Under the pieces are notes generated by a model. That model did no database searches. It worked only from the letters and a program-made list of their open reading frames with translations, and was not told the origin of the DNA. The translations under genes were made by a program, and so were the position numbers. This document shows, one piece after another, positions 4,373 through 63,335 of a DNA stretch of 64,000 nt. Origin of the DNA: Octopus vulgaris (taxonomy: Eukaryota); the NCBI GenBank assembly GCA_951406725.2, contig CATOCA020000002.1:806001-870000 (forward strand), in the 5' to 3' direction. Each line of letters opens with the position of its first letter. Position 1 is the first letter of the stretch.

Positions 4373-4444
<72 letters not shown>

Positions 4445-4672
4445 TAATTAATCAATATAGGGTGGCAAAAAAAATTTTGTAGAATTCTTTTGCCACCAGC
4501 GGCCTAGTGGGAAAAAATTAAATAGTCATAAACCATTTTTAAGTTCAACATCACAATCAAGGAACGGCCATAATAGGCCATTCACCCACTAGAAATAACA
4601 GCCAAAAGCTTTAACCGCAAAATAACGTCAATTCCGTAAACCAGGAGAAAATTAAAAAACATTTACCCTGTA

Positions 4673-4779
4673 ATTTCTTAGACGATGCACCGTTTCATCT
4701 ACTGTTTAATGGAAAACTAACCTGATTAAATTAAATCAAGCCAATCTACCATAGGCCCTTAGATTCATCAGTAAGAAAT
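4673..4779 (-). ncRNA. Type I hammerhead ribozyme (copy 1)
   Basis: Minus: AUUUCUUA-CUGAUGA-AUCUA..(long stem II)..UAGAU-GAAA-CGGUGCAUCG-UC/UAAGAAAU; 8-bp stem I, intact core, GUC cleavage triplet. Confidence 0.85.
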
Positions 4780-5165
4780 AGCCAAGCCGGAACAGATATT
4801 TTTCACGAGGCATTCTCGTTGCTACCTCGTCAATATCTGACCTAAAATTTTCAAATCGTCGCACTCGCGCATCAAATTTATCGGCAGCAAATAAATATAA
4901 GCCGCCGATTCCATTACGGAATTAACCAGAAAATTCATAATTAATCAATATAGGGTGGCAAAAAAAATTTTGTAGAATTCTTTTGCCACCAGCGGCCTAG
5001 TGGGAAAAAATTAAATAGTCATAAACCATTTTTAAGTTCAACATCACAATCAAGGAACGGCCATAATAGGCCATTCACCCACTAGAAATAACAGCCAAAA
5101 GCTTTAACCGCAAAATAACGTCAATTCCGTAAACCAGGAGAAAATTAAAAAACATTTACCCTGTA

Positions 5166-5272
5166 ATTTCTTAGACGATGCACCGTTTCATCTACTGTTT
5201 AATGGAAAACTAACCTGATTAAATTAAATCAAGCCAATCTACCATAGGCCCTTAGATTCATCAGTAAGAAAT
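5166..5272 (-). ncRNA. Type I hammerhead ribozyme (copy 2)
   Basis: Identical to 4673-4779. Confidence 0.85.
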
Positions 5273-5911
5273 AGCCAAGCCGGAACAGATATTTTTCACG
5301 AGGCATTCTCGTTGCTACCTCGTCAATATCTGACCTAAAATTTTCAAATCGTCGCACTCGCGCCAAATTTATCGGCAGCAAATAAATATAAGCCGCCGAT
5401 TCCATTACGGAATTAACCAGAAAATTCATAATTAATCAATATAGGGTGGCAAAAAAAATTTTGTAGAATTCTTTTGCCACCAGCAGCCTAGTGGGAAAAA
5501 ATTAAATAGTCATAAACCATTTTTAAGTTCAACATCACAATCAAGGAACGGCCATTTTTTTTTGCCACCCTATATTGATTAATTATGAATTTTCTGGTTA
5601 ATTCCGTAATGGAATCGGTTACATAGCTTATTTGCTGTTATTTATAGACTGGATGAAAATAGAACATTTGAAATTATGGCCGTTCCTTGATTGTGATGTT
5701 TCTAAGGGCCTATGGTAGATTGGCTTGATTTAATTTAATCAGGTTAGTTTTCCATTAAACAGTAGATGAAACGGTGCATCGTCTAAGAAATTACAGGGTA
5801 AATGTTTTTTAATTTTCTCCTGGTTTACGGAATTGACGTTATTTTGCGGTTAAAGCTTTTGGCTGTTATTTCTAGTGGGTGAATGGCCTATTATGGCCGT
5901 TCCTTGATTGT

Positions 5912-5946
<35 letters not shown>

Positions 5947-28900: not shown

Positions 28901-28946
28901 ATTAAGTGTTCATGATATATATATATATATCGATATAAGAAAACGA

Positions 28947-29179
28947 AGAAAAAATATTGTGGATACTTATTTTATTTGTATCACAATTAGAACACTGCAA
29001 ATAGTTTAATACAAATAAAATTTAAATGAACATACATTAACATAAAATAAGCATAAGAATAGGCACCTCTTATGCTTATTTTATGTTAATGTATGTTCAT
29101 TTAAATTTTATTTGTATTAAACTATTCGCTATATTCTTATTGTAATACAAATAAAATAAGTATCCACAATATTTTTTCT
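28947..29179. repeat. AT-rich inverted repeat, ~112-bp arms, 9-nt spacer, next to (TA)n
   Basis: AGAAAAAATATTGTGGATAC...GCATAAGA / TCTTATGC...GTATCCACAATATTTTTTCT. Confidence 0.85.
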
Positions 29180-29453
29180 CCATTTCCTTTTATTAATAAA
29201 TGTAAATTAGACTGATTATCCCTTTATATTAAGAGAATTCTCTCAAAATATCATGATAACACCAGTTGATCTCTGGATTTTATAATCCCTAAAGAGGATA
29301 CTATATTCTTAAATTGACTATATTTTTAAGAAATAATTAAGATTCAATTAAATTAGGTACTTAAGTTGAAGCACCAAGTCAATCCAGTATTATCTGCATA
29401 GCTCGAAGTAAGGTAAATAATATCAAAATAAGTAACAGGATGTCAAGTATTAG

Positions 29454-40072: not shown

Positions 40073-40117
<45 letters not shown>

Positions 40118-40333
40118 TCAATTTAGGGTAGCAAAAAAATTCAATAGAAATTTATCGCTACCAACGGCCTAGTGGAAAAGAGAAAATAGTCAACGACTAA
40201 GTATATAAATATAACAATTTAGGAATGACCCTAACAGGTCATTCGTCCACCAGAAAGAGCAGCCATAACTCACACCGCCAAGTAGTAGTAATTCAAAAAT
40301 TAGGTGAAAATTCAAAAACATTTACCCTAATTC

Positions 40334-40437
40334 ATCTTTTAGACGTTGCAACGTTTCTGTGTCATTAATGATTAAATTAGCTTAATTAAATTAAATTAAG
40401 CTAATCTACCATAGGTTACACTTCATCAGTAAAAAAC
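40334..40437 (-). ncRNA. Type I hammerhead ribozyme (further copies 40808-40911 and 41281-41384)
   Basis: Minus: GUUUUUUA-CUGAUGA-AGUGU..long stem II..ACACA-GAAA-CGUUGCAACG-UC/UAAAAGAU; palindromic stem III. Confidence 0.8.
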
Positions 40438-41848
40438 CTGGGAGAGACAAATATACACGAGGCGTCTGTATCGATGCCTAGGGAATATCTGTCTTAAAAT
40501 TTTCAAGACTGACGTATTCGCGCCAAACTTATCAGCAGTAAATATAAACTGCCGATTCAATCTCAGAATTATTCAGAAAATTATCAATTAGTCAATTTAG
40601 GGTAGCAAAAAAATTCAATAGAAATTTATCGCTACCAACGGCCTAGTGGAAAAGAGAAAATAGTCAACGACTAAGTATATAAATATAACAATTTAGGAAT
40701 GACCCTAACAGGTCATTCGTCCACCAGAAAGAGCAGCCATAACTCACACCGCCAAGTAGTAGTAATTCAAAAATTAGGTGAAAATTCAAAAACATTTACC
40801 CTAATTCATCTTTTAGACGTTGCAACGTTTCTGTGTCATTAATGATTAAATTAGCTTAATTAAATTAAATTAAGCTAATCTACCATAGGTTACACTTCAT
40901 CAGTAAAAAACCTGGGAGAGACAAATATACACGAGGCGTCTGTATCGATGCCTAGGGAATATCTGTCTTAAAATTTTCAAGACTGACGTATTCGCGCCAA
41001 ACTTATCAGCAGTAAATATAAACTGCTGATTCAATCTCAGAATTATTCAGAAAATTTTCAATTAGTCAATTTAGGGTAGCAAAAAATTCAATAGAAATTT
41101 ATCGCTACCAACGGCCTAGTGGAAAAGAGAAAATAGTCAACGACTAAGTATATAAATATAACAATTTAGGAATGACCCTAACAGGTCATTCGTCCACCAG
41201 AAAGAGCAGCCATAACTCACACCGCCAAGTAGTAGTAATTCAAAAATTAGGTGAAAATTCAAAAACATTTACCCTAATTCATCTTTTAGACGTTGCAACG
41301 TTTCTGTGTCATTAATGATTAAATTAGCTTAATTAAATTAAATTAAGCTAATCTACCATAGGTTACACTTCATCAGTAAAAAACCTGGGAGAGACAAATA
41401 TACAGATTAGCTTAATTTAATTTAATTAAGCTAATTTAATCATTAATGACACAGAAACGTTGCAACGTCTAAAAGATGAATTAGGGTAAATGTTTTTGAA
41501 TTTTCACCTAATTTTTGAATTACTACTACTTGGCGGTGTGAGTTATGGCTGCTCTTTTCTGGTGGACGAATGACCTGTTAGGGTCATTCCTAAATTGTTA
41601 TATTTATATACTTAGTCGTTGACTATTTTCTCTTTTCCACTAGGCCGTTGGTAGCGATAAATTTCTATTGAATTTTTTTGCTACCCTAAATTGACTAATT
41701 GATAATTTTCTGAATAATTCTGAGATTGAATCGGCAGTTTATATTTACTGCTGATAAGTTTGGCGCGAATACGTCAGTCTTGAAAATTTTAAGACAGATA
41801 TTCCCTAGGCATCGATACAGACGCCTCGTGTATATTTGTCTCTCCCAG

Positions 41849-41952
41849 GTTTTTTACTGATGAAGTGTAACCTATGGTAGATTAGCTTAATTTAATTTAA
41901 TTAAGCTAATTTAATCATTAATGACACAGAAACGTTGCAACGTCTAAAAGAT
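41849..41952 (+). ncRNA. Type I hammerhead ribozyme in the inverted copy
   Basis: CTGATGA at 41857-41863; GAAACGTTGCAACGTC at 41929-41944. Confidence 0.8.
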
Positions 41953-42067
41953 GAATTAGGGTAAATGTTTTTGAATTTTCACCTAATTTTTGAATTACTA
42001 CTACTTGGCGGTGTGAGTTATGGCTGCTCTTTCTGGTGGACGAATGACCTGTTAGGGTCATTCCTAA

Positions 42068-42149
<82 letters not shown>

Positions 42150-51438: not shown

Positions 51439-52957
51439 AATTTGGGTACTACAGAAGTGTGGACCTGAGTTCTGAGAATGCGCATGTCACAAATTTGCGC
51501 GTGCGAGCGTTAGTTGTAAGTAGTCGAATTTAGCACACATGGCAAACGACGAGACGCGCGGATGTGCGCTACTAGTTGATTTTAACACAGAGGTAAACAA
51601 CGAAGCGCACGGACGCGCGCTACTTGTAAATGGAGCGGGGTCATCCATGTAATACAAAAAGAAAATTGCAGATAAATTGAACATAAAAGTGAAAAATAAT
51701 CATTGAATACCGAAAAAAACATTCATCTCCCCTAACCCTAGACGATCAAACTTAAGCGTTTGACCCGGTCATAAAAACAAAAAAAACCCCCTAAACCCTA
51801 ACTCTCAACCTAACCCTAAACCCTAACCCGGATCTTTTCCTTTTAAACGGCAGTTTCAACACAATTTCTAGTTAACTAAACACTTTTAAACTTCGTATAC
51901 TGGTAGAATGTGTTTATAAAACATAATTTTTTCTTGGCTTTATTGAGAAATTTCTATAGTTTGTAAGATATTTCCACTTTAAAATCGAGCATTTCGGCAA
52001 TTTTAACCAATCGCTGACGTCCATTTAGGTAAATAACATTCCGTGCTGTATGAATATGTCCCTCCTTTAAGAAACAGATTGGGTTTATTTACATTTGCGA
52101 AGAAAAAAAAGATACCCTTCCCCAACCCCTAACCCTAACTCTAACTAACCCTAACCCTAAAACAGATTAAAATACAATAGATCGATACTAGAGTTATAAT
52201 TATGGGTGACATTTTCATTTGACACCGCTAGAAAAAAATCCCATTTTCCGTAGCGGTGTCGTATGAAATTGTCACCCATAATTATAACCCTAGTATCGAT
52301 CTATTGCATTTCAATCTGTTTTAGGGTTAGTTAGGGGTGGGGGAAGGGTATCTTTTTTTCTTCGCAAATGTAAATAAACCCAATCTGTTTCTTAAAAAGG
52401 AGACATATTCATACAGCACGGAATGTTTTCACCCCAAATGGAGTTGAGCGATTGGTTAAAATTGCCGAAATGCTCGATTTTAAAGTGGAAATATCTTACA
52501 AACTATAAAAATTTTTCAATAAAGCCAAGAAAAATGATGTTTTATAAACACATTCTACCAGTATACGAAGTTTAAAAGTGTTTAGTTAACTAGAAATTGT
52601 GTTGACATATGCCGTTCAAAAGGAAAAGATACCCTAACCCTAACCCCTAACCCTTAATAAAATATGGGAAAAGCTGGAGATGAATGTTTTGAAAACATTC
52701 TGAACTATCTTTCAGAATGTTTTACTTTTCAATGAAATATCATTTTGTTATTTTTCATGTTTTTATTAAATTTATCTGCAATTTTCTTCTTGTATTAGAT
52801 GGATAACCCACCCTCCATTTACAGCAAGTAGCGCGCGTCTCGTTGTTTACCTGTATGCTAAAATCGATTACTTACGACTAACGCGCTCGCATGCGCAAAT
52901 TTGTGACATGCACACTCCCAGAACTCGGACCCATACTTCTCCAGTAGTGCCAAATTT
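51439..52957. mobile_element. Outer fold-back/MITE element with ~270-bp diverged inverted arms and internal TAACCC repeats
   Basis: 51439-51735 is the reverse complement of ~52655-52957 (e.g. CATGTCACAAATTTGCGC / GCGCAAATTTGTGACATG). Confidence 0.8.
51830..52632. mobile_element. Inner fold-back element: ~400-bp arms, ~20-nt spacer, inserted in a TAACCC tract
   Basis: ATCTTTTCCTTTTAAACGGCA...GACACCGCTA / TAGCGGTGTC...TGCCGTTCAAAAGGAAAAGAT; CCCTAACCC on both flanks. Confidence 0.9.
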
Positions 52958-53910
52958 TAGAACTGAGTTTGCACCCCCTAAGCAAATTTTGTTCCCGGGC
53001 CACTGCCTTTTTGATGTAAATAATTTTTGGTGTTAACATGGTCCGATTTGAATTTTTTCTTCTACGGAAGGAAGAGCAAGTCTTCTATCATACTCTCAAT
53101 TTTGGTCAACTTGCGCCGCAGGGTCTCGGAGGAGATAGTGTTAGTTGAAGGCTACCAAACCTGCCATACACAGACAACTTCAGCTTTATATATAGACTAC
53201 TCGTAACCCGTTGTGTCACCGGAAAAGTCTGAGTTTCCCAGCAACAGAGTTTTGTTTCGTAGGTTTTTTTCTTCTTTTTCCAGATTATTTTGCATGCTTT
53301 CAACGATTGTGACTTAGAAACCACGAGTAAGCAGCTCCTTTCCCCAGAAAAGGAAAGATTTAGCAGCTATTTCTTGCACGCCCTGCTACCACATAATAGG
53401 TATTTCGGGTCCTTTATCGCAAATAGCGGTTACGTGGTAGCGGGGCGTGCTAGAAATAGCAGCCAATTATTTGGAAGTGAGATACGTTGAATGCACTCGG
53501 AAAAAAAAACCTATGCAAAAAAATTTCACACTGAGGTTACGAACAGGTCTTTTACGAAATATTTACGCCAAAAAGAATTTTTGTAATGGTATTCATTGAA
53601 AATAATTTTTGAAAGCCATTGAAATATTGTCTGTTTAAAGAAAACTAAAATATAAATACTTATTGTACAAACAACTTACATTTTTGAAATCACTTTCACT
53701 TAGAAATATTACTAAATGATTAGTCACTGGACCACGTGCGATTGTTTACATAAGATCGTCACTTTCCGTAATTTTTTTATTCTATTATTTCTGTGGGTTG
53801 GGGGGAAGGGTATCATAAAAGCCAGACAGATAGAGCGCGAAGTTCTTTTGAAGTTGGCGTTCCGCTTGTGTGTGTGTATCTCGCACACCCCATCAAACAC
53901 ACACACACAT

Positions 53911-63022: not shown

Positions 63023-63335
63023 ATTGAAATTATAGGAAATTTCTTAGAACATGAATTTATAAAAAATATTTCCAGACAGTCAAGTTTTTAATATTACTTT
63101 CTTTTAGTACTTTTAGTAATTGCTACATACCTAATTGATAATCAGCTTTCTCCATTATAGTATCATCATCATCATCAGGTTAAGGTAATGATGATGATAC
63201 TATAATGGAGAAAGCTGATTATCAATTAGGTAAGTAGCAATTACTAAAAGTACTAAAAGAAAGCAATATTAAAAAAAAACTGTCTGGAAATATTTTTATA
63301 AATTCATGTTCTAAGAAATTTCCTATAATTTCAAT
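63023..63335. repeat. AT-rich inverted repeat, ~150-bp arms, ~14-nt spacer, followed by (TA)n
   Basis: ATTGAAATTATAGGAAATTTCTTAGAACATG...TATCATCATCAT / ATGATGATGATA...CATGTTCTAAGAAATTTCCTATAATTTCAAT. Confidence 0.9.

Follow-up and report, generated by a model that had tools for sequence, protein, structure and literature searches.

A 64,000-nt window of the Octopus vulgaris genome (contig CATOCA020000002.1, positions 806,001 to 870,000) was analysed here. It holds two insertions built from hammerhead ribozyme units, which belong to families A and B. The family B insertion has two back-to-back arms between (TA)n tracts. The features are listed below in window positions.

40075..40114, no strand: left (TA)n target tract
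40113..41404, minus strand: left arm, 2.7 units of 473-474 nt
40113: outer end of the left arm, the "long" end, at unit position 228 after the cleavage site
40334..40437, minus strand: type I hammerhead motif 1, predicted cleavage after 40342
40808..40911, minus strand: type I hammerhead motif 2, predicted cleavage after 40816
40817-40828, minus strand: stem III of motif 2, with a palindromic UGCA loop; an A-A mismatch lies at the base of stem II
40848-40881, minus strand: inner helix of the long stem II of motif 2
40816..41288, minus strand: one monomer of 473 nt from cleavage site to cleavage site, the predicted RNA
40922..41029, minus strand: further conserved hairpins (41006-41029, 40967-40981, and 40922-40965 enclosing 40934-40953)
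41075..41109, minus strand: hairpin 14 nt upstream of the long end site (about 41061)
41116..41200, minus strand: long-range helix closing a multiloop; hairpin 41170-41191 and the short end site (about 41158-41161) lie inside this loop
41198..41212, minus strand: 15-nt motif GGCUG..UUUCU, also at 40739 and 40265 (minus) and 42021 (plus)
41281..41384, minus strand: type I hammerhead motif 3, predicted cleavage after 41289
41404..41405: inversion junction; the left arm stops at unit position 358 and the right arm starts at 408, with a 1-nt overlap
41405..42072, plus strand: right arm, in inverted orientation, with 1.4 units; the "short" end (unit position about 130) is on its outer side
41405-41469: 3' half-motif of the hammerhead
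41849..41952, plus strand: type I hammerhead motif 4, predicted cleavage after 41944
42072..42141, no strand: right (TA)n target tract
4440..5914: family A insertion, arranged in two arms in the same way; long end at 4440, short end at 5914

The family B repeat has a period of 474 (2.7 copies, 99% matches) and is about 72% identical to family A, in agreement with the initial annotation, which had described a 474-nt hammerhead array diverged from A. That annotation treated 40113..42071 as a single array. This holds for the minus-strand units up to 41404, whereas 41405-42072 is an inverted arm on the plus strand. Both outer ends of the insertion adjoin (TA)n. The family A insertion has a unit of 491-493 nt and a scrambled centre. 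The GC content of the unit is about 33%, the longest ATG open reading frame in the window units encodes 43-66 aa, and no LTR pair was found in the mapped insertions. The sequence GCGCG is invariant in all 14 aligned units (window 40519-40530 on the minus strand and the equivalent positions); its context in A and B, which we take to resemble an E2F site, makes it a possible promoter element. Other long palindromic repeats in the window (28919-29207, 51832-52630 and 63023-63335) are 87-92% self-complementary and unrelated to A and B by BLAST.

The hammerhead motif consists of a stem I of 5-8 bp, the CUGAUGA core, a stem II of about 65 nt, GAAA, a 4-bp stem III and GUC. The core elements CUGANGA, GAAA and UH are thus present, with stems I-III in type I order. 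The pattern had 1,214 matches in the genome, versus 0 for a control pattern. Stem I differs yet pairs in nine subfamilies and families (A, B, B3, B4, F, G, C, D and E), and this covariation indicates that the ribozyme is under selection. Position 10.1-11.1 is A-A in window B, B4, G, C and E and is paired in A (A-U), F and B3 (G-C) and D (A-U). Rfam hammerhead models gave no match at E<=1 for the window or at E<=10 locally. The long stem II is the likely cause, and a model match is not a defining feature of hammerheads. The minimum-energy fold forms without stems I and III. The motif and its covarying stems suggest that the units may cleave themselves. In the window B subfamily, double compensatory changes relative to close B subfamilies are seen in stem III (40817-40828; A-U to U-A) and in the hairpin 41170-41191 (G-C to A-U).

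The two-arm layout recurs across the 2.8-Gb assembly. Insertions were mapped at 22 B and 28 A loci out of hundreds; these loci are top BLAST matches or multi-ribozyme loci and therefore lean towards long, young insertions. In 44 of the 50, the outer end of one arm falls within unit positions 128-140, counted from the cleavage site, and that of the other within 226-244 (the B short-end figure of 140 includes TA overlap). Not one of the 50 has both ends at the same site. The six departures comprise four insertions with one end elsewhere and two that have no inverted arm (L041, L046, L057, L059, L062 and L071). An inverted 5' copy, a tail at one end and a microsatellite target make up the Penelope "tail" signature, which is present in 44/50 insertions. 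The rule of one short and one long end also holds in 13/13 family C and 8/8 family F loci with both ends scored (30 fetched for each family). A regex end count yielded one long/long and one short/short locus, but these were artefacts of a flanking element (L041) and of an off-site end (L071).

The centre of the insertions is variable. Among 48 central junctions, judged at BLAST level, 23 overlap by at least 2 nt, 15 overlap by 0-1 nt and 10 are gapped. At L067, L070, L073 and L079, the arms start at a nearly equal unit position inside a hairpin, leaving a fold-back centre. A hairpin that terminates in CC precedes each outer end by about 10-15 nt, and the end falls within an AU-rich stretch able to pair with TA; the (TA)n target hides any target-site duplication. 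Complete units follow one another head to tail, up to about ten in a row. Near-identical A and B copies occur on many contigs, and young copies on different chromosomes are 97-100% alike.

Non-LTR retrozymes were defined by Cervera and de la Pena in 2020 (PMC7229834), who showed circles in coral, mussel and axolotl and proposed Penelope-like elements (PLEs) as drivers; the words "inverted", "octopus" and "cephalopod" are absent from the text of the article. Li et al. (2026 preprint, 10.64898/2026.07.22.740005) linked non-LTR retrozymes to pLTRs in Xenopus and, in the available text, favour local amplification as the origin of tandem arrays. The octopus family shows the tested features of this class: tandem units, at least two of them consecutive and each with a type I hammerhead, non-coding sequence, low GC, no LTR, dispersed recent copies and PLEs in the same genome. 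Its sequence thus places it among the non-LTR retrozymes; a retrozyme RNA was one of the two readings offered by the initial annotation. As far as the available text of these sources goes, it resembles the metazoan members in that its tandem units lack coding sequence and contain a single type I hammerhead, GC stays below 50%, LTR, PBS and PPT are not visible, PLEs co-occur and the predicted fold is self-paired; its unit size falls within the 51-972 bp range of the preprint. It differs from them as described there in its two diverging arms, its two fixed ends in (TA)n, its stem II of about 65 nt and a motif common to several families. Circular RNA has been seen for metazoan retrozymes, whereas for the A/B family it is a prediction from the DNA. 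The axolotl retrozyme HHR_Amex2 and newt satellite 2, as presented in PMC7229834, share the type I hammerhead, the mismatch at the base of helix II and the tandem units, but have another sequence, shorter stems II and III, and no dispersed two-armed insertions. The initial annotation did not recognise the family as described, and no description of it or of two-armed retrozyme insertions was found in the mostly open-access literature searched; the class, however, is known. What is new is the insertion anatomy and the one-unit bottleneck described below.

Variation among the units of an insertion bears on the form of the template. Within the arms, the cleavage site is passed without indels in 246/248 matches. 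Of the variants within insertions, 158 are confined to a single unit and 11 are shared by some of the units; one variant has the same index in both arms. A further 27 variants, in 19/50 loci, are private to one locus (relative to the 22 B and 28 A loci out of hundreds) and are carried by its units collectively; 23 of the 27 are present in both arms, and L055 has four private variants in all 9 covering units. If both arms had read a linear multimer, index-matched sharing would be expected, whereas one monomer read repeatedly would lead to the pattern observed. Variants found nearly always in every unit or in just one fit a single monomer read repeatedly, and the locus-wide private variants in 19/50 loci indicate a one-unit bottleneck. 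No ADAR-type skew was found among the template-borne variants (A>G 4 and T>C 5 of 27). Sequencing-run contigs containing the stretch were listed in 20 entries, none of them recorded as RNA. In contigs of four runs guessed to be RNA, parts of the unit are covered at a depth of about 5-16; strand, ends and circles are unreadable there, and these data were not used as evidence.

We consider it probable that the family inserts as a non-coding retrozyme, its two arms being made by a Penelope-type RT/GIY-YIG protein that cuts a TA repeat and, starting from each of the two strands, copies a single RNA monomer, probably a circular one. The array would first be transcribed, and the hammerheads, judging from the motif and the covarying stems, would cut the transcript into monomers. 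The monomer would then be ligated into a circle, as suggested by other animal retrozymes and by the seamless junctions. A Penelope protein, possibly as a dimer, would bind a conserved module of motif and hairpins 60-230 nt after the cleavage site and cut (TA)n on both strands. The fixed ends observed suggest that one DNA end primes at unit position ~130 and the other at ~230. Each RT would circle the template for a variable number of turns, and the two cDNAs would finally join at a variable point, often via short homology, to give the back-to-back arms; the junctions are observed, and the joining route is our suggestion.

Such a process has precedents among PLEs. Craig et al. (10.1101/2021.04.23.441226) describe PLEs with an inverted copy, a tail at one end and a (TA)n bias, and the study in PMC11167929 reports that a purified PLE protein extends both strands, has two internal RT starts and is predicted to form a dimer. 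Circles have been proposed as templates (PMC7761336 and PMC4209133), and PMC7761336 mentions retrozyme repeats without a motif pointing to the driver. In the available text of PMC7229834, Craig et al., PMC7761336 and PMC4209133, circles as the template of Penelope RT are proposed rather than shown, and the origin of the tandem and inverted structures of Penelope is called unresolved. Compared with PLEs of the Neptune/Naiad type (TA targeting) and Poseidon (PAc), as far as these are described there, the A/B retrozyme has the same inverted 5'-truncated copy, one-end tail and (TA)n bias, and its two predicted internal RT start sites lie downstream of the hammerhead, as do those of the PLE in PMC11167929. 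Unlike these elements, it has no ORF, a tail of about 100 nt instead of 30-40, whole-unit multimers in both arms, and a full hammerhead with a 4-bp stem III in place of a minimal one.

It is unlikely that the two sites were primed on a linear RNA instead, either an uncleaved multimer followed by gene conversion that makes the arms homogeneous or a cleaved monomer copied with precise end-to-end template jumps. Ribozyme cleavage was dispensable in vitro for the Anolis PLE, which used mostly unprocessed RNA and whose ribozyme mutants still inserted, according to the available text of PMC11167929; the fixed ends of the octopus insertions lie away from the cleavage site, and young donors are homogeneous anyway. 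However, a multimer predicts equal-index variants across the arms, and a single one was seen against 158 singletons, while the one-unit bottleneck in 19/50 loci also speaks against it. Template jumps should leave indels at the junctions, nearly all of which are exact, and the covariation of stem I indicates a ribozyme under selection.

Copying of a monomer through a folded RNA would also account for the conserved pairing outside the ribozyme. The monomer folds better than its shuffles (z -6.7 on the minus strand and -5.1 on the plus strand). The six helix pairs quoted in the initial annotation were all recovered with identical letters when the minus strand was read in A (4440-5555) and in B (40113-41404). 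When its 58 pairs were scored in an alignment of 14 natural units or part-units, 92.6% of the cells paired and 11 pairs had changed on both sides; no shuffle reached this level, in a control that ignores relatedness. Because the helices were picked from A and B, the comparison of these two is circular, and the non-ribozyme helices were therefore tested on other subfamilies, with substitutions permuted among the paired columns. Fewer pairs were broken than expected from B to F (4 versus a null mean of 8.2, p 0.001), A to F (5 versus 10.2, p 0.002), B to B4 (0 versus 2.4, p 0.006), B to B3 (2 versus 4.6, p 0.011) and B to H (2 versus 4.0, p 0.043). The comparison of B with B2 was borderline (1 versus 2.5, p 0.065), that of A with A2 was uninformative, and pairing in the one partial G copy was not significant. 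These comparisons share common ancestry and hence are not independent. In the automatic alignment (A1), the A rows are out of register at the 5' hammerhead core and the F rows at two helices; columns 405-440 were excluded from the all-column null, and the F rows were excluded for the two helices in the G-U count.

RNA helices outside the ribozyme are thus under selection, as the initial annotation had claimed, and pairing is mostly kept in the held-out subfamilies. However, its picture of a structure preserved over the entire monomer goes too far: the tested helices hold 116/473 nt, or 164/473 with four added helices, a quarter to a third of the unit, although they are spread along it. Its statement that mismatches resolve as G-U pairs on the minus strand is right in direction but weak when held out, with 12 new G-U versus 6 A-C types (p 0.12). 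An alternative count gave 16 versus 7 (p 0.047 against an even split), a value that is weaker given a G- and U-rich strand. The likely reason why pairing outside the ribozyme persists is that cleavage, ligation and RT loading all require a folded RNA.

The initial annotation had also considered a replicating viroid-like RNA. An RNA of this kind, copied from RNA to RNA as well and only now and then written into the genome, is very unlikely. Helices are conserved along the unit, the families diverge with compensatory changes, and RNA-RNA replication is raised as a possibility for mussel retrozymes in the available text of PMC7229834. Yet in the hammerhead scan the motif appeared in a single polarity (for other ribozyme types, Rfam was the only search), retrotransposition through a folded RNA explains the selection, and the young copies on different chromosomes are nearly identical. 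With Avsunviroidae and plant LTR retrozymes the family shares predicted hammerhead processing, a small structured RNA and predicted circularity; it differs from them in having a type I rather than a type III hammerhead, one polarity only and a genome-encoded origin, and in giving no sign of RNA-RNA replication.

Local hairpins can be corrected at the DNA level. A DNA-level element, similar to a MITE, a foldback element or a satellite, might thus acquire its paired changes by palindrome correction. The insertions are indeed inverted repeats in TA, the held-out G-U excess is not significant, and the opposite strand also folds well. Nevertheless, the two termini differ from each other and the centre varies. 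The hammerhead core shows no change, whereas stem I, located across the junction between units, covaries, and the helix spanning 85 nt has no broken cell. We regard this explanation as highly improbable.

Retrozyme copying is also supported by families outside A and B, which share the end layout. Family C, reached via a chance BLAST match, has a unit of about 590 nt with its own full hammerhead, and many of its copies are short end fragments; at L184, three tandem copies of such a fragment with TA between them likely reflect local duplication. Families C, D, E and others form a second hammerhead retrozyme clan with units of about 550-590 nt (L196, L209-L210, L226-L227, L231-L234, L225 and L236). 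The second clan cannot be aligned to A and B, yet it has the 15-nt motif GGCUG..UUUCU and the two-end layout. The motif lies 51-71 nt before the short end and is common to these otherwise unalignable families. It has 28,775 matches in the genome, compared with 13 for a control. Among the first 30 matches, 17 were placed by inspection in retrozyme-like families, and most others lie in a different repeat. The motif followed by pure TA within 55 nt has 1,791 forward-strand matches (on the reverse strand, repeated counting inflates the number), which suggests ~3,600 insertions and, likely, a superfamily of thousands. The different repeat is abundant, and in it the motif is mostly followed by AGC/AGT with no TA end nearby; it occurs in the window at 53465 (minus) and 58030 (plus) and at L208, L212-L217, L223, L224 and L235.

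A possible source of the enzyme was sought with a GIY-YIG domain profile. Of 6,136 candidates, 150 were scored and 148 matched; 16 lie in 781-aa open frames with an RT domain. The element with these frames is a young two-ORF PLE (e.g. L144:744-5990, L146 and L148-L150) whose copies are 98-99% alike and lie in (TA)n. Its ORF1 of 479 aa has no clear Pfam match, its second ORF of 781 aa encodes RT plus GIY-YIG, and its pLTR carries a minimal hammerhead-like core. The two ends of this PLE are 40 nt apart in (TA)n, so that its tail measures 40 nt versus about 100 nt in the A/B retrozyme, and both copies with an end on each strand (L123 and L146) have one of each end. The 781-aa RT/GIY-YIG element is a candidate driver. 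The likeness of the 15-nt motif to the end of the coding PLE was not significant (p 0.14-0.83). The one strong BLAST match in this search proved to be a fragment of family A that lies in a TA tract close to part of a PLE.

No autonomous PLE, with an RT plus GIY-YIG ORF, is present in the units or the mapped insertions. The notion that the units are merely truncated pseudo-LTR ends of a coding Penelope element, which the initial annotation had itself raised, can virtually be dismissed: Xenopus retrozymes resemble pLTRs (10.64898/2026.07.22.740005, available text) and many family C copies are short end fragments, but complete units repeat head to tail up to about ten times, the window units have no ORF longer than 66 aa, family C has a full hammerhead unit of its own, and tblastn of two PLE proteins matched only the flanks of mapped insertions, never the interior.

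Within the favoured retrozyme reading, a more specific arrangement can be proposed tentatively, with chances that we judge slightly under even. A Penelope RT dimer would load at two fixed sites onto one circular ribozyme RNA and run rolling-circle synthesis from both strands of one break, the module of motif and hairpins being the RT-loading signal of the superfamily. Several observations count against the favoured reading as a whole, namely the A-A mismatch at the base of stem II in B, the minimum-energy fold without stems I and III, and the finding that the A/B units have no BLAST similarity to PLE sequence in 46 GIY-YIG loci (of 6,136 candidates). If this arrangement is correct, the insertions would be genomic proof of circular RNA as the template of retrozyme transposition, and the tandem, inverted and tailed structures of Penelope elements in general would be explained. 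The family offers young, near-identical insertions with base-precise ends, a strict pairing of a short with a long end, and a one-unit bottleneck. It suggests at which two sites synthesis starts, which module may load the RT and which enzyme of the same genome may be at work. Since an in vitro system with a PLE protein exists, as described in the available text of PMC11167929, the question of the circular template may be put to a direct test.
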